A DNA stretch of 64,000 nucleotides from Abditibacterium sp. (GTDB lineage: Bacteria > Armatimonadota > Abditibacteriia > Abditibacteriales > Abditibacteriaceae). Positions 24,418 to 55,387 of the stretch are shown here, piece after piece. The position numbers were made by a program, and so were the translations under genes. Under the pieces are notes generated by a model. That model searched no databases, was not told the DNA's origin, and worked only from the letters and a program-made list of their open reading frames with translations. Positions within the stretch are counted from its first letter, which is position 1, and every line of letters starts with the position of its first letter. Location of the stretch: NCBI GenBank assembly GCA_965246885.1, contig OZ251992.1, positions 800,001 through 864,000 on the forward strand, read 5' to 3'.

Positions 24418-25275
24418 TTATTTCAACACCAGACCCGCATCGGTAAAGCGCATCCGTTCAGGCGAGATGTTGAACGCTTGTTTCAAGTTGTCGCGCGCGA
24501 GGGAGCGGCCCAGTTTGATCGTCTTCTCGTCGTGGTGCTGCCCGCCCGCGACGACGGTGAACTCTGCCATAACAGGCCAGATTAGCAGAGTCTCATACGT
24601 CAGTTGCTTGTCGTGATCGTTTAGCACCGCAAAGTTCTGATCCCTCAAGAGCAGGCCGCGCACTTGTTCGCGGAGCGCCTTCGTTTGCGCTTCAGTGGGC
24701 GGTGTGGGCGGGCCTTTGCGATGCAAATTAGTAAGCGCCACTTCGCGCGACACCGTCAGGTAATACGACACCGCGCGCGACACATCGTTCATTTGCAGGC
24801 TTTTGTCGGGGTTCTTCGAGAGGTCTCCCTTGGCGGCCTGCAAGCAGAAGTTCAGAAACTTCTCGGCCTCGGCGGGATCGCCCTTGCCCGCGATGGCGCG
24901 GGCGAACAGTTTGGGCGCGAGCGAGGGCGCAACCGGCTTGAACAAAAGCACCGACGCGGGCGCTTTGGGCGCGGGTTTATCCGTCGAAGCGGCGCCTTCG
25001 GGTGCGGCGGTTTGGCCTCGCCCCCTTTGCTGCGAACGCTCCGACCGCGAACGCTCTATCGCTTGATCCACAAGCAAGTCCGTCGTTCGTTGGTCGCCTT
25101 GCCGAACCACGTTGAAATAGTCGTTCCAACGCTGCGTCTGGTTTTCAAAGAGTTGCGATTGGCTCCAGGGATTGTATTCGTAGTTGCCCGTAGAAGGGTT
25201 GAAACTGGTATCGGCGCGCGCCATCGGCGTCAGCGATAGCAAGACAAGTGCGCCCAAAAGAAGTTGACGTTTCAT
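24418..25275 (-). CDS. secreted protein, DUF6683-like
   Basis: Signal peptide ..MARA. Paralogous to 25290..26141 (D.SRA, P.EAQ..ALR, KQ..ETL.I, GLV). Confidence 0.75.
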   Translation of the reverse strand: MKRQLLLGALVLLSLTPMARADTSFNPSTGNYEYNPWSQSQLFENQTQRWNDYFNVVRQGDQRTTDLLVDQAIERSRSERSQQRGRGQTAAPEGAASTDKPAPKAPASVLLFKPVAPSLAPKLFARAIAGKGDPAEAEKFLNFCLQAAKGDLSKNPDKSLQMNDVSRAVSYYLTVSREVALTNLHRKGPPTPPTEAQTKALREQVRGLLLRDQNFAVLNDHDKQLTYETLLIWPVMAEFTVVAGGQHHDEKTIKLGRSLARDNLKQAFNISPERMRFTDAGLVLK

Positions 25276-25289
25276 AGATTTGCTTGCTC

Positions 25290-26141
25290 CTACGAGATGA
25301 CGAGTCCCCCCTCGTCGAAGGCCAAGCGCTTGGGGTCAACGCCGACCATGCCTTTGAGATTGATGTCGGCAAGCCCGCGAAAGCCCGTCTTGACTTGCTC
25401 GCGCTTGGAAGCTTCCAACTTGGGCGCGACGTTCTCGATGCCGTAGTCCACCAAGAAGGTGAGAATAACGAGGGTTTCGTTCATCTCCTGCTTTTGCGCG
25501 TTGCTCAGGGCGCGAAACGACTTATCTTCCGATAGCGCGGTGCGAATCTTGCCGCGCAGGGCGCCGATTTGCGCTTCGCTGGGAAGCGTGCCGGAGCGGT
25601 GGTAGTAGTTGGCCGCGATGCAAAACGCAAGAGTGCGCGCGATGTCGGTCGCGGGCGCGTTCAGTTGCTTCGAGCGGTCTTTATAGCCGTTCACGAAAAT
25701 GGTAAACAGCTTCTCAAAGGCGGCGCGGTTCTCCGGGTGCTTGGTGCCATCGGCAAAGGCGGCGGCCAAACGCGCGGGCATCACAGATTTTCCGGTGTGA
25801 TACATGGTGCCCTGATACTTGGCGAAGCGCACCGCCTCGGAACGCTCGCGCACGGGTATGGCTTTAAGGCGCGCCGCGCGGCGGCTTGAAGCGGAACTGT
25901 GGGAACCGGCGCGACTATGAATGCGCGATTCCGCCATGAGCAATTGGGAGTTCATCAGCGAGTTGCTGTAAATCCGGTTGATGTTCGACTGGTAGATCTG
26001 GGTCATCGTGTTGTTATACGGGTTGACCCAGCCGCTCGAATAATAGTTGTTGCTCATGTCCAACTGGGCCTGAGCGCGTGGCGCGAGGACGCCCACCAAC
26101 AGCGTACCGCTCAAAGCGGCGGCGAAGAGAGACTTGTTCAT
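25290..26141 (-). CDS. secreted protein, DUF6683-like
   Basis: Signal peptide ..RAQA. DIARTLAF, PSEAQIGALR, KQEMNETLVI, GVDPKRLAFDEGGLV. Confidence 0.75.
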   Translation of the reverse strand: MNKSLFAAALSGTLLVGVLAPRAQAQLDMSNNYYSSGWVNPYNNTMTQIYQSNINRIYSNSLMNSQLLMAESRIHSRAGSHSSASSRRAARLKAIPVRERSEAVRFAKYQGTMYHTGKSVMPARLAAAFADGTKHPENRAAFEKLFTIFVNGYKDRSKQLNAPATDIARTLAFCIAANYYHRSGTLPSEAQIGALRGKIRTALSEDKSFRALSNAQKQEMNETLVILTFLVDYGIENVAPKLEASKREQVKTGFRGLADINLKGMVGVDPKRLAFDEGGLVIS

Positions 26142-26154
26142 GGTAAAAGTCTGG

Positions 26155-26712
26155 TCAGACGTTGCGCACTGCTCCATCGAGAAGACACATCCACACCAAC
26201 TGGTCGGCGACGCCCTTGGTGTTCACGTTTTTGTGGGCGAAGCGAAACGCATCTTGCATGGCGCGCAGGCTCGCTTCCGTTTGGCGCCCAAATACGCCGT
26301 CGAGTGCCACAGAAGGCGGGGCCGGTTCGTAACTGGTATTGTTGAGGAGGGTTTGCAGGGCGCGCACTGCATCGCCGCTCGCGCCGCGCCGCAATGTTGG
26401 GCAGAGCGCCGCCCACGTTTTTGGCCCGACCACGCCGTCGGCGCTCAAGCCGTGCGCGCGCTGGAACTTCTTCACGGCGGCTTCGGTTTGCTGTCCAAAC
26501 GTGCCGTCCACGTCGCAACGATAGCCGCGCGCCCGCAACAGATATTGCAGCGCGCGAATGGTGTTGTCAAAGGCTTCGGTATCCGAATGTCTCGAAAGGC
26601 GCGGCCACTGCGTGTCCCTTTGCGCGCGTGCGCAAGGCGTGAAGTGAGGCGCAAGCACACTCGGCGCCAGAAGAGACGCGCCCACAAGAAATAGAAGGTG
26701 TCGTTTCATCAT
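26155..26712 (-). CDS. secreted peptidoglycan-binding protein (two PG_binding_1 domains)
   Basis: IRALQYLL..VDGTFGQQTEAAVKKFQ..GLSADGVVGPKTW, then a second repeat VRALQTLL..LDGVFGRQT. Confidence 0.9.
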   Translation of the reverse strand: MMKRHLLFLVGASLLAPSVLAPHFTPCARAQRDTQWPRLSRHSDTEAFDNTIRALQYLLRARGYRCDVDGTFGQQTEAAVKKFQRAHGLSADGVVGPKTWAALCPTLRRGASGDAVRALQTLLNNTSYEPAPPSVALDGVFGRQTEASLRAMQDAFRFAHKNVNTKGVADQLVWMCLLDGAVRNV

Positions 26713-27845: not shown

Positions 27846-29180
27846 ATGGCTCATTTCCGCTACGAAGGGTTCGACCAACTGGGCAAAGCGCGGCGCGGCA
27901 CCGTTGAGGCGGGCGACCAGAACTCCGCACTCGTCGGCATCCGCTCGCAAGGCGTCAACCCCACGCGCGTCGAACCCATCGCCGCGCCCGTTCCGCGTCC
28001 CCGCCCGCAAGTCGCGCCCTTCGCCCCGCCCCCCGAAGTCGAAGCGCCCTTGCCCGAAGCGCCGCAACGCTTTATTCCCGGCACGTCCGGCTCGCGGCCC
28101 AACCCCGGCACGAGCGCTTCAGCCATGCTCCCGCGCCAGCCGCTTTTGCGCTGCAACTCCCGCGACATGGCGCTTTTCTACCGCAACATGGCTTCGCTTA
28201 TCAACGCTGGAACCGGCATCGGTGCAGCCTTGAAATCTATGTCAACGGCGGCGTCCAACGGCGCGCTGCGCCGCGCGTGCGCGCAAATGGCGGAGCGCTC
28301 CATGACCGGCACGCCGATGAGCGACATGATGCCCGCCTTCCCCGGCGTCTTTTCGCCGTTGCAAAATGGCATCGTCGCGGCAGGCGAGCGCGGCGGCCTC
28401 CTTGTCGCCGCGTTTGAGCGACTTGCTAACTATTGCGAGCGCGATCACGAACTGCGGACGATGGTGATAGGCCAACTGGCTCATCCCGGAATCGTTGCCA
28501 TCGCTGCGCTTTTTATTCCCTCCATCGTCACCCTCGTGCTGCTGGGCGGGCACGCTTGGGCGGTGGGCATGGTGCCGGTCATCGAACGCATCGTGGCCTT
28601 CATTCTGCTGCTCGTTGTGTGGCACTACGCTAAGCCTTTCGTTCCCTCTGAGAATCCCGTTAAGGCGGTGTGGGATCGGGTGCGCCTTCAAATTCCTGTC
28701 TTCGGGCGGGTCGTGCGTAGCTTGGCCACCGCCAAGTTTTGCCGTTCGTATGGCGCGCTTTATAGTGCGGGCGTTGGCCCCGGCGAAGCAATTCGGCTTT
28801 CGGCGGTGGCGTGTGGAAATATGGCTATCGGCACGGACTCGGTAGCGCAAATTTCCAACATTGAAAAAGGAAGTTCGCTCACTCAAGCACTGCGTTCAAC
28901 CAACCACTTCCCGCCATTGTCTTTGCAGATGATGCAAATCGGCGAGCAGACGGGCGACATTGACACCTCAATGGACAAAGTCGCTGATTTCTTGGAGCAG
29001 GACGCCGAATCTGCCATCCGCAGAGCTATTCCCTTGATAGGCATTTTGATGCTCCTGTTTGTGGCTTACTTCCTTGTGCTGCCGCAATTGAAGCAGATGG
29101 TCGAGTTCATCAGCAAAATCTACGACAACGCCGCTGACCCTGATGGTTCGTCAACGACCCCAACTTTTGGCGCACAGTAA
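27846..29180 (+). CDS. pilC: type II secretion F / PilC inner-membrane platform protein
   Basis: N-terminal F.Y.G.D..G...G.VEA, two T2SSF domains (AGERGGLL..FERLA; MMQIGEQTGDID). Confidence 0.88.
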   Translation: MAHFRYEGFDQLGKARRGTVEAGDQNSALVGIRSQGVNPTRVEPIAAPVPRPRPQVAPFAPPPEVEAPLPEAPQRFIPGTSGSRPNPGTSASAMLPRQPLLRCNSRDMALFYRNMASLINAGTGIGAALKSMSTAASNGALRRACAQMAERSMTGTPMSDMMPAFPGVFSPLQNGIVAAGERGGLLVAAFERLANYCERDHELRTMVIGQLAHPGIVAIAALFIPSIVTLVLLGGHAWAVGMVPVIERIVAFILLLVVWHYAKPFVPSENPVKAVWDRVRLQIPVFGRVVRSLATAKFCRSYGALYSAGVGPGEAIRLSAVACGNMAIGTDSVAQISNIEKGSSLTQALRSTNHFPPLSLQMMQIGEQTGDIDTSMDKVADFLEQDAESAIRRAIPLIGILMLLFVAYFLVLPQLKQMVEFISKIYDNAADPDGSSTTPTFGAQ

Positions 29181-45681: not shown

Positions 45682-48546
45682 ATGCCGCGTTCTCTTTCTC
45701 CCGCGCCGCGCCAATCGCGGCTGACGTGGGGTATGGCGCAGGGGTTGGTTATTGCCCTCGCGCTGCTGTTCTTGCTGCGTCCGGGCGCGCTCGGCGGCCT
45801 CGCGCACACGTTGGAATGGGACACGTTGGATTGGTGGTTTGGGTTGCGGGCGCCGCGCAGTGCACGTTCGACGGCGATTCTGGCCGTTGACGAGGCGACA
45901 ATCGCGCGGTGGAACGGGCGGGTTTTCGAGGCGCGCGACGTGGCGTTGGCGCTCCGCGAACTCAAAGGGCGCGGCGCCAAAGCGGTGGCGCTGGATTTCC
46001 CGTCGTTGTGCGAGGTGCCGCTCGGCGCGTCCGATGCGGACGAGTTGGCATCGGCGATGCGCTTCAACGGAGCGGTCACGCTTCCGCTTGCGCTGCGTTT
46101 GGGTTCGGGTTCGGAAATCCCGACGAGTCCGAGCGTAGAACGGTTTGCGTTCGCGCCGGAGGAGCGCCTCGCGCCCGACGACGCGCCCCTTGCGCGCGCC
46201 GATGCCATTGTGGGGTCTCCCGGCGCGTTGATGGATGCGGCGGCGGGTGCGGGACACACCAACTTCGAGTTCGACCGCTTTGGCCGCGTACGGGCGTTGC
46301 CCCTTGATGCGCGCTTGACGGCGCCGCTTGGCGGGAATCTGAACGGGCGCTTGTTTCCCTCGCTGGCGTTGGCGACGGCGAGCGCGGCGGGGCTGGCGGC
46401 GCCCGCTCGGGAGGAGCCGATGTTGCTCAACTTTGCGCGCGGCGGGGGGGACGAAAGCCGCGCTTTTCCGGTTGTGTCGCTCGCGGCGGCGCTGCGCGAT
46501 CCGCGCTTGTTCGAGGCGTTCCGGAATCGCGCGGTGGTGGTGGGGGTGACGGCGCGCTCGTTGTGTTCGCGCTTCCCCACGCCGGGCGGGGCGCGCGTGC
46601 CGGAGTGCGTCTTGTCGGCGGAGGCGCTGGACAACCTGCTTTCCGACCGGGCGCTGCGCCGCGCGCCGCCGGTGTTGCACTGGTTTTTGACGATTCTGCC
46701 TGCCTTGGTGGTGGGCGGCTTGGCGGCGGTGTGGCGTCCGGCGAGTAGCGCCGTGCTGGCGCTGTTGTGCGCGCTCGTGGTGGCGCTAATTTCGTTTGGG
46801 ATGTTCGGGCGCGACGTGTGGCTGGACACCAGCGTGCCTTGGTTGACCATCGGCGCCGCGTGTCTGGTGGGCGTGGTCGGGCGGGCGCGGCGCCAAGAGC
46901 GGGACACCATTTCCATCGCTTCGACGGTGGACGCGCTCGCGCAGGTGGCGGACTTGGTGACGGTGGGGCGCAACCCGACGGAGCTTTTGGAGCGCGTCCT
47001 GTCGTTTGCGGCCAAGACGCTGGGCGCGAGCGGCGCGTCGGCGCTATTGTTGGAGGGAGACGGCCAGCATCTCAAGTTCGTGGCGGCCATTGGCCCGCGC
47101 TCGGCGCCGCTCGTGGGGCAGTTGGTGGCAATGGGCGAGGGCTTGGTGGGGCGGGTGGCGCGCGAAGAACGGGGGATGATCTTGGGCGATGCCGGGGAGC
47201 ACGCGGGGCGCTTCGACTTGTTGACCGGTTTGGAAACGCGCTCGCTGTTGGCGGTGCCGCTTCGGGTGCGCGGGGAAGTGGTAGGGGCGCTCGAAGTGGT
47301 GAACCGCGAAGGGGAACTGCCGTTTTCGCCCGCCGACTTGGAGCTATTGCAAGCCATCGCCAATCAAGCGGCGGTGGCGCTGGATAACGTGCGCTTGTAT
47401 AACCGGCTGGCCTTTCGCGTCGAGCAGTCGCAGGACGCGCTCGCCGTTGCCAACCGCGAACTGCAAGCGGACAAGGCGCTCATGCAAACGGTGCTGTTCT
47501 CGATGACCGATGGGCTGGTCGTGACGGACGAGTCGGGGCGCATCCAACTGGTGAACGAGGCCGCTGTGCGCTTGTTGCCGGAACTGGCGGGGGAGGAAGT
47601 GCTGGGCGAACGGCTGGCGCTCGTGCTGCCCGACTTCGCTTTGGGCGCCATTCCGCCGTCGCCCGAAGGGGACGAAGAGGAGCCGGTCATCCTGTTTCGC
47701 GGCTCGCTCGACGCGGTGCGCGCGGTCGAGGGACACGTGGCGCCGCTTCGCGGGGGGCACGGCGAGTTGGCGGGATTGGTGGCGGTGTTCGCCGATGTCA
47801 CGCAGCGCCGCCGCATCGAGCAGGCCAAAAGCGACTTCGTGTCGTTCGTGGCGCACGAGATGCGCTCGCCGCTCACTTCCATCGCGGGCTTTTCGGCGAT
47901 GCTGTCGCGCGACGAAGGAGCGGGCGCGGGGCAAAGCGCCCTGTCTCCTCCGACGCGCGCGCGGTTTTTGGGACTGATTCGCGGCGAAAGCGAGCGGCTC
48001 ACGCGGCTGATTAACACCCTTCTCGATACCGCGCGTTTGGAAGCGGGACACGCCATTGAACTCAACCGCGACGCGCTGGAGTTGGCGCCGCTGATTCAGT
48101 TGGCCTTGGAAACGCAGCGCGCGTATTCGAGCCGCCATACCCTGCGCGCCGACCTGCCGCCGCACTTGCCACCCGTTTTTGCCGACGCCGACAAAGTGCT
48201 GCAAATCCTCGTCAACCTGCTTTCCAACGCGCAGAAGTACTCGCCCGGCGGCGAGATTACACTCTCCGCGCGGACGCGCGGAGAGAGGGTGGAACTGAGC
48301 GTGCGCGATCAAGGGCCGGGGATTGGGCCGGGGCAACGCGAACTGCTGTTTTCCCGTTTTGGCCGGGGGCCGCAGTCGGCGCAAGGCGTGGGGGCGGGCG
48401 CCAAACCGACGGGGACGGGGTTGGGCTTATTTTTGACCAAGCACTTAGTCGAAGCGCACGGCGGCGAAATCTGGGTGGAAAGCGAAGTCGGGCAGGGCGC
48501 AACGTTTCGCTTCACCCTTCCCACCGAAGAGAGTTTTGCTTCTTGA
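45682..48546 (+). CDS. CHASE2-GAF-PAS sensor histidine kinase
   Basis: CHASE2 (ILAVDEATI, DRFGRVR), 3 TM, GAF (TRSLLAVPL..GALEVVN), VAHEMRSPL, NLLSNAQKYS, DQGPGI, GTGLGL. Confidence 0.93.
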   Translation: MPRSLSPAPRQSRLTWGMAQGLVIALALLFLLRPGALGGLAHTLEWDTLDWWFGLRAPRSARSTAILAVDEATIARWNGRVFEARDVALALRELKGRGAKAVALDFPSLCEVPLGASDADELASAMRFNGAVTLPLALRLGSGSEIPTSPSVERFAFAPEERLAPDDAPLARADAIVGSPGALMDAAAGAGHTNFEFDRFGRVRALPLDARLTAPLGGNLNGRLFPSLALATASAAGLAAPAREEPMLLNFARGGGDESRAFPVVSLAAALRDPRLFEAFRNRAVVVGVTARSLCSRFPTPGGARVPECVLSAEALDNLLSDRALRRAPPVLHWFLTILPALVVGGLAAVWRPASSAVLALLCALVVALISFGMFGRDVWLDTSVPWLTIGAACLVGVVGRARRQERDTISIASTVDALAQVADLVTVGRNPTELLERVLSFAAKTLGASGASALLLEGDGQHLKFVAAIGPRSAPLVGQLVAMGEGLVGRVAREERGMILGDAGEHAGRFDLLTGLETRSLLAVPLRVRGEVVGALEVVNREGELPFSPADLELLQAIANQAAVALDNVRLYNRLAFRVEQSQDALAVANRELQADKALMQTVLFSMTDGLVVTDESGRIQLVNEAAVRLLPELAGEEVLGERLALVLPDFALGAIPPSPEGDEEEPVILFRGSLDAVRAVEGHVAPLRGGHGELAGLVAVFADVTQRRRIEQAKSDFVSFVAHEMRSPLTSIAGFSAMLSRDEGAGAGQSALSPPTRARFLGLIRGESERLTRLINTLLDTARLEAGHAIELNRDALELAPLIQLALETQRAYSSRHTLRADLPPHLPPVFADADKVLQILVNLLSNAQKYSPGGEITLSARTRGERVELSVRDQGPGIGPGQRELLFSRFGRGPQSAQGVGAGAKPTGTGLGLFLTKHLVEAHGGEIWVESEVGQGATFRFTLPTEESFAS

Positions 48547-48632
48547 ACTTCCACTTAGGGGTTGACGTCCACCATCGGGCGGGAGTTCTCACTGTCGCCT
48601 GTTCAGCAGTCGCCCCTCTCGCAGGAACAACC

Positions 48633-49130
48633 ATGCTCAAGAAACTATTGATTGGAGGCATCTTGGGAGCTTGCGCTCTCACTGGCCTGTCTCCCGTCGC
48701 GCGCGCCGATGGCGACCGCGACACCCGTGACCGCGATTATCGCCCCGCGCCGTATTACGGCGACCGCGACGATTATCGCCCCAACCGCGACCGTGACCGC
48801 GACTACCGTGACCGCGACGACGCCCGCGACCGCGACTACCGGCGCGACCGTGACCGCGATACTCGTGACCGCGATGACTACCGCCGCAACGACTACCGCC
48901 GCAACGATTACAATCGTGGCGGCAACTACGGCTATAGTGGCGGTATCACCGTCTACGGCGGCGGCACTAACCGCCCCCGTTACGATGACCGCTATGACCG
49001 TCGCCCCCGTTACGACGACCGCTACGACCGTCGCCGCCGCTATGACGACCGCCCGCGCTACGACAGCCAAGGCCGCATCATCACCGGCGCCATCGTGGGC
49101 GGGATTCTGGGCGCCATCATCGCCCGCTAA
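48633..49130 (+). CDS. secreted low-complexity D/R/Y-repeat protein with C-terminal glycine-zipper-like tail
   Basis: Signal peptide ..ARA, DRDYR and RPRYDDRYDR repeats, GAIVGGILGAII. AGGA RBS and a terminator follows. Confidence 0.85.
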   Translation: MLKKLLIGGILGACALTGLSPVARADGDRDTRDRDYRPAPYYGDRDDYRPNRDRDRDYRDRDDARDRDYRRDRDRDTRDRDDYRRNDYRRNDYNRGGNYGYSGGITVYGGGTNRPRYDDRYDRRPRYDDRYDRRRRYDDRPRYDSQGRIITGAIVGGILGAIIAR

Positions 49131-51001: not shown

Positions 51002-51454
51002 ATGGCCCAGCATCCCGACCCCTGCGACATCTGCGCGCGCCTCGACCGCATCGCGGCGAGCGACTACCCGCCCTTCATCCACGAACTGCCAACCGGCTTT
51101 TTCGTGCTTGGCGACTCGCAGCAGTTCCCCGGCTACGCGCTTCTCTTGTCGAAGGCGCCCGTCGCCGAACTCGAAGAGTTACCCATGCCCGCGCGCATGG
51201 CGTTCCTGCGCGACGTGGCGCTCTGTTCCCAAGCCGTTGCCGACGTTGTGCGCCCGCACAAGATGAACGTCGAATCGCTCGGCAACGTCGTTCCGCACCT
51301 GCATTTCCACTTCTTCCCGCGCCAGCTATCCGAGCCGGAGCCGACCAAACCCGTCTGGACGCAGCAGCACGAAGGAGCGCCCTTTGACCCCGCCCGCGAT
51401 GGCGCGCTGGTCGCCCGCCTGCGGGCGCGGGTGGTAGAGTTGGCGCGCGCTTAG
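51002..51454 (+). CDS. HIT family protein
   Basis: CDIC, FPGYALL, LGNVVPHLHFHFFPR. Confidence 0.92.
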   Translation: MAQHPDPCDICARLDRIAASDYPPFIHELPTGFFVLGDSQQFPGYALLLSKAPVAELEELPMPARMAFLRDVALCSQAVADVVRPHKMNVESLGNVVPHLHFHFFPRQLSEPEPTKPVWTQQHEGAPFDPARDGALVARLRARVVELARA

Positions 51455-52206
51455 TCGCCGTCGTAGTGCTTGGTGGCGGCGGGGTCAGTCCACATGGCGT
51501 CGAACTGCCCCGCGCTCACGGTGAACTTCGCGTGCCCATCGGCGAACAAGAAACTCCCGCCCGTCGGGTGCCACTGTGCGTAGTAGAAAGGCGTGCCGGA
51601 GTAGCCGTAGGTCGCGCCGCCCGCGTCCATGTCGGGGCCAAACCAAGGCAGCATTTCGTCGCGCATGATGCGCGTTTCGGCGGCACGGGCGAACATCGAG
51701 TCTTTGACGGTGTGCGGCTGCACGGTGTTGGGGTTGGCGGGGTCGGAAAGGATGTTGTTTTGGCTCGATTCCCCGGCGACCACCGAATACGCGCCGCTCG
51801 TGAAGCGATACGAGGAGCCGTAGCACGCGGCGTAGGAGCTTTGCTTGGTGGCGTCGAGGGCGCAGTCGCCGTCCGACGCGATGGCTGGCCCGCCGATGTC
51901 GTTGGGGCACTTGAACACTTGCAGGCTCCGCGTGTAGGGCTGCAACTCCAACTCGACGCCCTTGTGGCCGGGGTTTCCAGAAGCGGGGACGGAGTTGTAA
52001 GCGTAAAATATCGGCCACGTTTCGTCGTTGTCTTGGACGTATTGCAGGGTGCCCAAGCCGATTTGCTTCATGTTCGACAGGCAGTTAACGTCGCGCGCCT
52101 TTTGGCGGGCGCGGGAGAACGCGGGGAACAGGATGGCCGCAAGAAGGGCGATGATGGCCACGACGACGAGGATTTCGAGCAGGGTAAAAGCGGAGCGGGT
52201 TCGCAT
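51451..52206 (-). CDS. prepilin-type N-terminal cleavage/methylation protein, DUF1559-like, H-X9-DG domain
   Basis: SAFTLLEILVVVAIIALLAAILFPAFSRAR..CLSNMKQIGL, FKCP, HPTGGSFLFADGHAK. Confidence 0.93.
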   Translation of the reverse strand: MRTRSAFTLLEILVVVAIIALLAAILFPAFSRARQKARDVNCLSNMKQIGLGTLQYVQDNDETWPIFYAYNSVPASGNPGHKGVELELQPYTRSLQVFKCPNDIGGPAIASDGDCALDATKQSSYAACYGSSYRFTSGAYSVVAGESSQNNILSDPANPNTVQPHTVKDSMFARAAETRIMRDEMLPWFGPDMDAGGATYGYSGTPFYYAQWHPTGGSFLFADGHAKFTVSAGQFDAMWTDPAATKHYDGD

Positions 52207-52294
52207 GACAAAAGGGGCGCACCGCTTGCTTCGCCCGAAAACAGGGGAGAAGTGCCGGTTGCCCGTTCTGCCCGAAGCCGGAACGGTCAACGAG

Positions 52295-52393
52295 TGCTTC
52301 CCTCCGCTGGTATGATCCAGATCAGGTGATTGGGGTCGGCTCCAAGCCCTCTCAGCCGCATCTCCGATTGGTCGGATGGCGGCGCCCCCAGCA
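52295..52393 (-). ncRNA. TPP (thi-box) riboswitch aptamer
   Basis: Minus strand reads TGCTGGGGGCGCC..GGCTGAGAGGG..GACCCCAATCACCTGATCTGGATCATACCAGCGGAGGGAAGCA. It has the CUGAGA motif, the ACCUGAUC..GCG.AGGGA core and P1 pairing UGCU/AGCA. Confidence 0.93.
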
Positions 52394-52455
52394 AACGCTG
52401 CGTTATTTGATTAGGTAACAGTGTGACGGCTTGCGGCGCCCGCCGGTTCGCTTCC

Positions 52456-53271
52456 TTAGTTCGCGCAAAGTGGCACGAGGCTTTGATACATCTCGCGCGC
52501 GGCATCGGCGGCGGGCAATTCCCATAAGCGCTCGCTGAACATTTCGATGGAAAAGGCGCCGTTGTAGCCATTGCTTTCCAAGGCGGCGATAATGGCGGGC
52601 AAATCGAGGTGCCCTTGGCCGGGAAGTTCGCGGTCGGCGTTGCAATCGGAGAGTTCGCCCGGTTTGTTCTTCATGTCGTCGAGGTGAACGTGTTTGATAA
52701 AGGGCACGGTTTGCGCGTTGATATGCTCGAACTTGGTGGCGGTGCAATGATAGTGCGCGGGGTCGAAGAGGACGCCGAAGTTGGCGGCGCCGCTCAAGCG
52801 GGCGATTTCAACGGCGCTTTGCAGGGTTTTGACGGCGCCCCAGTTGAACTCCAAGCACAGCGTCACGTTCATCGGCGCGACGGCGGCAGCGAGTTCGCCA
52901 AACAGTTCGCCATAGCGTTGGAGCGGGTTTTCGAGTTCGCCGATGGGTCGGTAGTCGGTGCCCATCACCATGTTTTGCGGCGCTCCGCCGCCCATTTCGG
53001 CGAGAAAGCGCGCTTTTTCGAGAATGGTCGCACGGTTGGCGGCGCAGCTGGCGTCGTCGCCGTACGCCTCGGCCCCGCAAAAGAAGCCGCCGATGCCGCG
53101 CAAGCCGCGCGCGGCGAGGGCGTTCTTGACTTGGACGGCGCCCAGCCCTTCCAGTTGGCCGAGCGCGAACTCGACTTGTGTAAAACCCGCCGCCGCGTAC
53201 GCGTCGAGGGCGGTTTCGAGGCTGTCGAAGCGCGTCGAAACCGAGTTGATGCCCAATTGAGACCGTTGCAT
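52456..53271 (-). CDS. sugar phosphate isomerase/epimerase (xylose-isomerase-like TIM barrel)
   Basis: LCLEF, LFDPAHY, HVHLDD, RELPGQG, FSIEMF. Confidence 0.9.
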   Translation of the reverse strand: MQRSQLGINSVSTRFDSLETALDAYAAAGFTQVEFALGQLEGLGAVQVKNALAARGLRGIGGFFCGAEAYGDDASCAANRATILEKARFLAEMGGGAPQNMVMGTDYRPIGELENPLQRYGELFGELAAAVAPMNVTLCLEFNWGAVKTLQSAVEIARLSGAANFGVLFDPAHYHCTATKFEHINAQTVPFIKHVHLDDMKNKPGELSDCNADRELPGQGHLDLPAIIAALESNGYNGAFSIEMFSERLWELPAADAAREMYQSLVPLCAN

Positions 53272-54733: not shown

Positions 54734-55387
54734 TTAGTTCGGGCACATGGTGTAGGCGTATGCATCAGGAGCGTTTGGAGGCGCCGGACAACTAAAATCG
54801 TAAGTCGCGTTTTCCCCGACGGATTTGACGTGGCCATCCACGAACAAACAGTTCTTCCTCTCAAGGTGTCTGGCACCATTCCCTGGGCTTGCGAGAAAGA
54901 ACTGCAGACCCGTGTCGTAGGAAGAAGGGCCAACTTCGTATGAATCGAAACAAAGGATGGTGCGGTCGGGAGCGGCTACTTTGCTGGAACTCATGTTGGT
55001 GATGTACAAATTGATGGCATACGAGGTGTAGGCACTAAATTCTGTGAAATTGACCCGTGCCGAAGATGGGCATTGATAAAGCCGCGCGTCTTTGAGATAC
55101 GGAAGAACCCTTTTTGTCCAGCCCACTCCCTGCCCATAAGGAAGAGTGGTGGCGTTCGCTGGAACATTCAACTCATCGCCATTCCAAGCGACAGGAAGAC
55201 GCCCCGCGTCCGCTTCGTACATTTGCAACGCCAAGCCGATTTGCTTGAGGTTGCTTTGGCACTGTGTCGAGCGCGCCTGCTCGCGCACTCTGGAAAACAC
55301 GGGGAAAAGGATGGCCGCCAATATCCCGATGATCGCTAACACCACAAGGATTTCCACGAGGGTGAACGCTGCTATTTTTGTTTTCAA
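54734..55387 (-). CDS. prepilin-type N-terminal cleavage/methylation protein, H-X9-DG domain
   Basis: TTG start, [61 protein letters not shown]. Confidence 0.92.

Follow-up and report, generated by a model that had tools for sequence, protein, structure and literature searches.

Why should a riboswitch for a vitamin coenzyme stand in front of a gene for a pilin-like protein? The question is raised by a locus in a 64,000-nucleotide stretch of Abditibacterium sp. DNA (assembly GCA_965246885.1, contig OZ251992.1, positions 800,001 to 864,000; the whole stretch is called the window here). In this locus a thiamine pyrophosphate (TPP) riboswitch precedes, on the minus strand, the gene of a 251-residue prepilin-type protein, P0001, with DUF1559 and H-X9-DG signatures. 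An earlier reading of the letters alone (the sequence-only reading) had taken the gene as a candidate component of thiamine acquisition. In our study the same pairing of switch and gene was found across the phylum Armatimonadota, strictly conserved with one orthologous group, which suggests that a component of vitamin uptake has so far gone undescribed. On balance, and with real reserve, we favour P0001 as a pilin-type extracytoplasmic capture protein for thiamine or a phosphorylated form of it, acting in place of the riboswitch-controlled TonB-dependent receptors.

The identity of the switch was established by an Rfam search of the window, in which positions 52282..52399 of the minus strand (read from 52399 to 52282) matched the TPP family RF00059 with 69.0 bits (gathering score 54.3, E 1.8e-11) over the full model, positions 1-105. 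The aptamer that had been proposed from the letters at 52393-52295 of the minus strand falls within this match, and the search which that reading had suggested as a check thus gave a significant score. The TPP site is the sole match of any Rfam family at gathering score in the window and the sole RF00059 match in the genome (E 2.3e-13; 3,555,033 bases in 2 contigs, marker completeness 92.7%). Its core segments CUGAGA, ACCUGA and CG.AGGGA are invariant columns in an alignment of 20 aptamers of relatives. A leader of 75 nt, the expression platform (52207..52281, minus strand), separates the aptamer from the ATG at 52206, with which the regulated gene P0001 begins (51451..52206, minus strand). 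The next gene, encoding a HIT-domain protein (51002..51454, plus strand; PF01230, 42.6 bits), is convergent and limits the transcription unit; hence P0001 is the only gene that the switch can govern, as the sequence-only reading had held. This convergent arrangement with the HIT orthologue is kept in one genome of the same genus (L012), and the upstream context differs there, so the switch travels with the pilin-like gene.

The pairing of switch and gene can be followed far beyond the genus. Of 41 relatives examined, 17 had TPP sites, 22 in all, and a clear P0001 orthologue came first behind 7 of these sites; three of these seven (the window's own site counted) belong to the window's genus and four to four other families of the phylum. 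The other sites lay before thiC, thi4, thiE or thiG, and one was cut by a contig end. In a wider sample of 151 Armatimonadota genomes, 103 had RF00059 sites; there were 126 such sites, of which 115 exceeded the gathering score. When P0001 was searched in this sample at E<=1e-30, 88 matches were obtained, 53 with 166-580 bits (in 51 genomes) and 35 with 127 bits or less, the division having been placed in this wide gap after the scores were known. Every one of the 53 high-scoring matches is preceded by a TPP site on its own strand and contig, 51 of them at a spacing of 37-232 nt and two as the second gene of a tandem pair; a TPP site was found upstream of none of the 35 low-scoring ones. Forty-six of the 51 carrier genomes have no TPP site besides this one, and the orthologue is single copy in 49 of the 51. 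Orthologues lacking the riboswitch had been named by the sequence-only reading as evidence against itself, and the reverse was found. An independent GenBank set of 79 loci with P0001 relatives agrees with this picture: RF00059 was present at all six of the best full-length matches for which upstream DNA was available (44-53% identity; metagenome-assembled genomes, MAGs, of Armatimonadota and Fimbriimonadaceae), at 0 of 14 further loci scanned with Rfam, and at none of the remaining loci by a regular expression for the core, which recovers 21 of the 22 known TPP sites.

This conservation bears directly on whether the association is incidental, the riboswitch being a remnant of a lost thi operon or controlling something else. 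The de novo pathway is indeed gone from this genome and the gene is alone there. However, a remnant would hardly be kept by every one of the 53 orthologue matches in many families of the phylum, at 37-232 nt for 51 of them, with synteny maintained within the genus and with thiamine genes as operon partners; we regard this explanation as very improbable.

Some variations on the arrangement were also recorded. Tandem duplicates of the TPP-linked orthologue stand behind one riboswitch at G052:C3:37322-38775 and G065:C264:3578-5065, and in three genomes of one genus (L157, L161 and L173) a further DUF1559 gene follows the TPP-linked orthologue. Two close homologues with 53-54% identity, P0100 and P0111, come from MAGs labelled Chloroherpetonaceae and Cytophagales; either these are mis-binned Armatimonadota DNA or the clade has a wider range. 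Another match from the same search bears the name Armatimonas rosea.

A possible role of the orthologues is suggested by the genes with which they are associated. At 50 orthologous loci (the window's own excluded), 146 co-directional downstream frames were compared with Pfam. TPK (PF04263, mostly together with PF04265) was found downstream at 20 of them and the SSF symporter family (PF00474) at 16, one or both being present at 23; the usual order is pilin-like gene, TPK and SSF, with overlapping stop and start codons. The SSF partner may be a putative thiV, with the corresponding substrate. A Fimbriimonadaceae MAG in GenBank (locus L027, 1354-4329) has the TPP riboswitch and the pilin-like orthologue followed by an NMT1/THI5-like protein and an APH-family kinase, and this is a salvage module different from the TPK-SSF one.

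The carriers also differ from other genomes in their thiamine biosynthesis. ThiC (PF01964) is present in 86 of the 151 genomes, namely in 3 of 51 carriers against 83 of 100 non-carriers (Fisher p 3e-21, a value which overstates the contrast because the surveyed genomes are kin). ThiE (PF02581) is found in 9 of the 51 carriers, two of these being fragmented and five weak at about 100 bits. The carriers of the orthologue are mostly auxotrophs, and a cell in which ThiC and ThiE are both lacking would need intact thiamine and not a precursor, which fits the adjacent TPK. The link to thiamine acquisition, first proposed from the window's letters, has therefore gained a conserved switch, operons with TPK or SSF and a concentration of carriers among genomes without thiC and thiE; a firmer tie between this orthologous group and thiamine acquisition could hardly be expected from comparative genomics. 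In two carriers with a second TPP site (G128:C10:72979-74814 and G048:C1:1958539-1959085) the thiC/thiE matches are in pieces, one piece having an internal TAA, and this looks like a decaying de novo pathway.

The protein itself has the features of a prepilin. The N-terminus of P0001 reads MRTRSAFTLLEILVV (also given as MRTRSAFTLLEILVVVAIIALLAAILFP), and matches were obtained to N_methyl (PF07963, 26.4 bits), to the prepilin cleavage/methylation model TIGR02532 (24.0 bits) and to DUF1559/SBP_bac_10 (PF07596, 36.8 bits against a cut-off of 23.3, covering only profile positions 2-27 of 268). Near the C-terminus the motif W-H213-X9-D223-G224-H (H213-PTGGSFLFA-D223-G224) is matched by the H-X9-DG model TIGR04294 with 20.3 bits (cut-off 19), so both the class III signal and the H-X9-DG motif that had been read from the letters are recognised by profiles. 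In an alignment of 103 orthologues with 51-81% identity to P0001, F7 and E11 (the Glu at +5) are invariant. Residues were called clade-specific when they were at least 90% conserved in the orthologues and present in at most 16% of 55 same-genome paralogues (exception G83, 27%). Thirty such residues were obtained: F67, A69, Y70, N71, H81, G83, E85, G105, Y125, S131, S132, Y133, R134, F135, S147, N150, N151, D169, F172, R179, R182, E184, M185, P187, F189, Y200, W212, G217, F228 and F235. They lie in the globular part and are rich in Tyr/Phe/Trp, Arg, Glu/Asp and His. The family-wide residues are those of the N-terminal helix, Cys42/Cys100, Y56-x-Q58-D59-x-D61 and H213..D223-G224-H225, and H213, D223 and G224 are common to at least half of the 55 paralogues.

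These residues would also suit a catalyst. P0001 might be a secreted or pilus-displayed enzyme which makes external thiamine derivatives transportable, for example a phosphatase of thiamine monophosphate (TMP) or TPP, or a hydrolase freeing thiamine or the pyrimidine precursor HMP. The near-invariant H81, E85, R134, D169, R179, R182 and E184, along with the family-wide H213-X9-D223-G224-H225, could furnish an active site, the operon and auxotrophy evidence fits such an enzyme equally, and one locus pairs the gene with an NMT1/THI5-like protein and a kinase. On the other hand, no enzyme family or fold was matched by P0001, and TPK takes free thiamine, so that no processing is needed if free thiamine is available. 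Moreover, H-X9-DG occurs in 51 of the 56 pilin-like frames of the same genome, which makes a thiamine-specific catalytic site unlikely. We consider the enzyme an unlikely explanation and return to P0001 as a capture protein.

The predicted structure of P0001 resembles, with low scores, that of pilins. The AlphaFold2 model (mean pLDDT 95.4, pTM 0.88) has a helix of residues 9-59 and a mixed globular part. Foldseek gave no match in the PDB at E<=0.001, the best being the type IV pilin PilA4 (6xxd, E 0.14). The top of the VIA-wide search consisted only of pilins and pseudopilins at low Z of 5.5-3.7: PilA4 (6xxd_A) with Z 5.5 and rmsd 3.9 over 123 aligned residues, a weak match, and with low scores 9iuf_A (Z 4.9), EpsG (4lw9_A, Z 4.6) and the DNA-binding ComP (5hz7_A, Z 4.2). 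In the ESM Atlas the globular part met only unnamed clusters of Planctomycetota, Verrucomicrobiota and Armatimonadota. Beyond a pilin-like fold that contains a large insert, these matches tell nothing.

A pilin fold and a class III signal are what a structural or tip pilin would have, and P0001 could be part of a starvation-induced filament for adhesion, motility or cell contact that reaches thiamine producers without binding the vitamin itself. The six secretin-domain matches and about 56 pilin-like genes of the genome would provide a setting for it, and the protein shows no likeness to a known binding pocket. A behavioural filament does not readily account for a dedicated orthologous group that is strictly linked to the riboswitch and single copy in 49 of 51 genomes, whereas a direct role in salvage fits better with a TPK and a transporter that are often translationally adjacent. 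The parallel cobalamin clade described below would, in addition, require a second vitamin-specific filament of this type. The filament explanation is therefore quite improbable in our view, and P0001 as a binder of the vitamin remains the reading that we pursue.

The association of TPP switches with pilin-like genes is not confined to the orthologues of P0001. In genomes with neither thiC nor a P0001 orthologue 14 TPP sites (12 genomes) were examined, to which two second sites of carriers were added; seven of these sites precede a different pilin-like gene of 231-251 aa, and one tested example has N_methyl and DUF1559. A search with this second subfamily gave 8 matches at 270 bits or more, the rest having 162 bits or less. 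It stands behind a TPP site in all seven cases with upstream DNA, which lie in seven further genomes (one of the seven sites, at 47.9 bits, is below the gathering score), the eighth being cut by a contig start. Pilin-like genes of both subfamilies together follow 58 of the 126 TPP sites of the sample. The second subfamily is also accompanied by TPK-like and SSF-like frames, judged by sequence and not by Pfam. A quick maximum-likelihood tree (IQ-TREE) was made of 74 pilin-like proteins. The 11 rows of the first subfamily fall into a single clade in it (SH-aLRT 87, or 98 together with one same-genome paralogue as sister), and the second (7 rows) makes up a separate clade with SH-aLRT 98; both TPP subfamilies group with a cobalamin-linked paralogue (SH-aLRT 90).

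Other frames behind TPP sites were noted in this sample. In two carrier genomes, at L119 (G064:C5) and L120 (G130:C29), a second TPP site is followed by a single frame or a pair of frames, each of about 220 aa and with a multi-span membrane look, which are candidates for an unrecognised thiamine carrier. At L117 (G135:C108) a TPP site of 48.0 bits, below the gathering score, stands before a 103-aa frame which by eye resembles the YkoF/MTH1187 thiamine-binding family.

A second vitamin shows the same pattern. The sequence-only reading had proposed a survey for cobalamin riboswitches before H-X9-DG genes, and these were found in numbers. At the GenBank locus L031 a cobalamin riboswitch (RF00174, 55.3 bits) lies directly upstream of another DUF1559/H-X9-DG gene, whose protein gave 53 matches at E<=1e-35 in the 151 genomes. 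An RF00174 site lies 81-512 nt upstream on the same strand in 28 of the 53, and about 3.5 kb upstream in 2. For the other 23, 20 upstream regions were scanned, and in 15 a riboswitch of the cobalamin clan was present in the proper orientation (12 RF00174, 1 RF01482 and 2 RF01689); five scanned regions were without a cobalamin riboswitch, one of these five being cut by a contig end. Overall, a cobalamin-clan riboswitch accompanies 43 of the 53 L031-type matches and 21 of the 22 in the top group (239 bits or more). In the genome of the window the only RF00174 site (36.9 bits, outside the window) lies about 120 nt before a 287-aa gene with DUF1559 and N_methyl and an H-X9-DG-like end, containing C-D-G-H-V-K, which appears to be monocistronic; site and gene are at G000:C1:3011030-3012122 (L141 1501-2593). 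This gene does not group with the L031 gene in the tree, so cobalamin control is found in at least two DUF1559 lineages. TPP and cobalamin are the two vitamin riboswitch types that were sought in this genome, and both precede DUF1559 genes. At 3766-5535 of L031, behind the cobalamin-controlled gene, there follow a 199-aa secreted protein with a PEP-CTERM-like end and, in the next frame, a 386-aa protein which by eye has the look of FG-GAP/VCBS repeats.

A riboswitch names the metabolite with which its gene is concerned, and the TPP switch (53/53) and the cobalamin switch (43/53) accordingly point at two members of the DUF1559 family. For the TPP-linked member we propose the following course, in which it is assumed that the switch works by OFF logic and that the protein is exported, binds its ligand, is assembled into a filament and acts by way of a secretin. 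When TPP is plentiful the aptamer would fold and expression would be off; when TPP falls, the pilin-like protein would be made and exported by its class III (prepilin) signal. It may then stay anchored in the inner membrane by its N-terminal helix, as in the bindosome of archaea, or join a short pseudopilus under a secretin by means of a type IV filament machine. On the far side of the inner membrane, thiamine or one of its phosphorylated forms would be captured by the large clade-specific insert in the pilin fold, and the ligand would be passed to an inner-membrane carrier, in many relatives probably the co-transcribed SSF symporter, and then to TPK. In a genome with secretins and without a match to a TonB-dependent receptor, such a system would do the job which riboswitch-controlled TonB-dependent receptors do elsewhere.

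The envelope genes of this genome are compatible with that course. No match to the TonB-dependent receptor barrel (PF00593) was found in the genome, and six secretin-domain (PF00263) and two prepilin-peptidase (PF01478) matches were obtained. The PilC/GspF gene reported at 27846 in the sequence-only reading is a T2SSF platform gene (27846..29180, plus strand; PF00482, 142.4 bits); it lies 23 kb from P0001 next to DnaJ-TPR, panB and panC, and this unlinked gene is a possible part of the P0001 machinery.

The thiamine genes of this genome are few, and the bacterium is a thiamine auxotroph by gene content. ThiC, ThiE, TPK and ThiT gave no match in it, and the ThiC, Thi4 and ThiE proteins of relatives gave no tblastn match; the ThiG query gave a single weak partial one (30.6% identity over 85 residues, E 1.6e-5). 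Their TPK, SSF, NMT1 and APH proteins likewise gave no tblastn match in this genome. ThiL is present with 290.9 bits (L102, C1:1710711-1711640). Uptake of a phosphorylated vitamer is a possibility as a way to TPP via ThiL alone, and the three near-invariant arginines of the clade would be compatible with a phosphorylated ligand, proving nothing. Three other candidates were set aside: ThiB at 25.5 bits is below its cut-off of 93.4, the APH-family kinase is represented by weak partial matches only, and the one match to the PnuC family is followed by a NadR-like kinase frame, so that it probably serves nicotinamide riboside uptake and not thiamine.

How the switch would act on expression can be considered from the leader. 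Thermodynamic folding with the aptamer locked predicts a long imperfect hairpin (-38.3 kcal/mol) for the remaining leader, its 3' arm running up to the AUG. Without this constraint a conserved stretch of the aptamer, GGAGGGAAG, is paired with CUUCUCCCC of the leader. Such folds would allow the start region to be occluded on binding of TPP. The overall folding z-score of the leader is -0.52, and no obvious Shine-Dalgarno sequence precedes the ATG at 52206. A GC-rich hairpin with a U-rich tract is the usual OFF design for transcription termination; by our own crude scan it is present in 10 of 20 related leaders, the clear terminator-like cases being L009, L016, L023, L024, L028, L106, L111 and L118. 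Upstream of the aptamer, the CACACT hexamer which the sequence-only reading had proposed as a -10 box (52420..52425, minus strand) is present as described, and its promoter role found no support, since a consensus scan of 51300-52600 gave no sigma-70-like site on the minus strand.

Several of our results weigh against P0001 as a switch-controlled capture protein for thiamine. With regard to control, the predicted accessibility of the start region is nearly equal with the aptamer free and locked (0.35 and 0.38). Among the sequencing data sets listed for this stretch, three were of DNA and none was of RNA. No terminator-like site was found in 51300-52600 by the consensus scan or in the leader by our own crude scan; the gggcg..cgccc hairpin with TTTT noted from the letters is there, and neither scan supported it as a terminator. 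With regard to the protein, residue -1 of the predicted cleavage site is Ala and not the canonical Gly (S-A/F-T-L-L-E, the slash marking cleavage), and the orthologue consensus A-F-T-L-I-E has Ala at -1 likewise; Ala at this position is tolerated by prepilin peptidases. No ThiB, ThiY/NMT1, ThiT, YkoF or TonB-dependent receptor family was among the Pfam and NCBIfam matches of P0001 at E<=0.01. No vitamin-binding protein fold was among the Foldseek and VIA-wide matches listed, where absence from the list excludes no family. The second TPP-linked subfamily is without the clade-specific residue set of the P0001 group. With regard to gene content, 27 of the 50 orthologous loci have neither TPK nor SSF downstream, and this genome, without these partners and with ThiL only, leaves the route from ligand to TPP unexplained. 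The late choice of the bit-score division and the overstated Fisher p belong to the same side.

Compared with known thiamine regulons, the locus is familiar in its control and unusual in its first gene. TPP regulons for thiamine transport and salvage include thiBPQ, thiXYZ, thiV and omr, the last an outer-membrane receptor homologous to btuB, according to the accessible part of PMC2211319, and in that of PMC10881298 thiV is given as a pyrimidine/B1 transporter of the sodium:solute symporter type. The aptamer family, the position in the 5' leader, the SSF and TPK companions (23/50) and the enrichment in auxotrophs are shared with our group. In contrast, the first gene here encodes a prepilin-type DUF1559 protein, of which there is none among the transporter lists in the accessible parts of PMC2211319 and PMC10881298, and P0001 is the sole regulated gene in this genome. 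In the literature searched, which lacks most subscription journals, no publication was found that connects DUF1559 or prepilin-type genes with a riboswitch for TPP or cobalamin.

In regulatory position there is a likeness to the TonB-dependent receptors. In Bacteroides, OMthi is reportedly such an outer-membrane receptor under a TPP riboswitch. As with btuB under cobalamin and omr under TPP control, the first, extracytoplasmic step of uptake would here be under the vitamin's own riboswitch, for B1 as well as B12. The difference is that here there is no beta-barrel, and a pilin-fold candidate would depend on a type IV filament machine, perhaps together with a secretin. Another parallel is the archaeal bindosome, in which sugar-binding proteins of Sulfolobus have class III signal peptides and are assembled by the Bas system (PMC3047682, accessible part). 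As far as that text goes it is the closest functional precedent, both having a solute-capture protein (here predicted) with a pilin-type signal and, in our proposal, a dependence on assembly like that of type IV filaments. Its proteins, however, are canonical archaeal ABC-transporter binding proteins, whereas P0001 belongs to a bacterium and its globular part is itself predicted to be a pilin-like fold with an insert. In this genome the gene has no ABC transporter beside it, and in relatives the partner is an SSF secondary carrier. With minor pilins and pseudopilins such as ComP and GspG/EpsG, P0001 shares fold-level likeness at low Z, the N_methyl motif and the Glu at +5. It differs from them in its clade-specific insert of about 110 residues, in Ala at -1, in the vitamin proposed as its ligand and in the location of its gene outside any pilus or type II secretion system (T2SS) cluster.

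These comparisons are of importance for the DUF1559 family as a whole, which is of unknown function and forms the largest paralogue group of one planctomycete, where 2 of its 68 copies are essential (PMC10632474, 2023, accessible part). In the present genome 56 pilin-like frames of 150-450 aa were found. The sequence-only reading had extended its proposal to ligand-specific pilins throughout the family, and this found no support in the other 54 pilin-like genes, which have 0 known riboswitches within 500 nt upstream at E<=0.01. The single upstream Rfam match, to a microRNA model with 37 bits against a gathering score of 124, was taken as chance. A neighbouring DUF1559 paralogue without riboswitch (54734..55387, minus strand; 65.5 bits with the Pfam DUF1559 model) served as an internal control, and its upstream region (L223) gave no Rfam match at E<=0.01. 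It is possible, and to us still doubtful, that the DUF1559/H-X9-DG proteins are ligand-specific pilin-fold receptors of a TonB-independent nutrient capture based on type IV filaments and secretins, with the riboswitch-linked members as the receptors for B1 and B12. If so, these two members would be the first handle for de-orphaning DUF1559, and dozens of paralogues per Armatimonadota genome would be concerned. For P0001, the orphan family becomes a testable hypothesis with named proteins, candidate ligands and 30 candidate contact residues. If it is a capture protein, diderm bacteria without a TonB-dependent receptor match would have a vitamin route across the envelope and a bacterial counterpart of the archaeal bindosome. 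This would bear on the competition for B1 and B12 among auxotrophs in soil and freshwater communities.

Some further features of the window may be mentioned. Upstream of the riboswitch lies a co-directional gene for a xylose-isomerase-like TIM-barrel protein (52456..53271, minus strand; PF01261, 103.3 bits), which ends 57 nt upstream of the aptamer. The minus strand at 24418-26177 encodes a pair of neighbouring DUF6683 paralogues (158.6 and 77.8 bits). The plus strand at 48543-49130 has a frame of 195 aa that opens with a signal-like N-terminus, contains an extended low-complexity stretch of Arg-Asp-Tyr repeats and closes with a hydrophobic tail; it could be a chance frame in GC-rich DNA.

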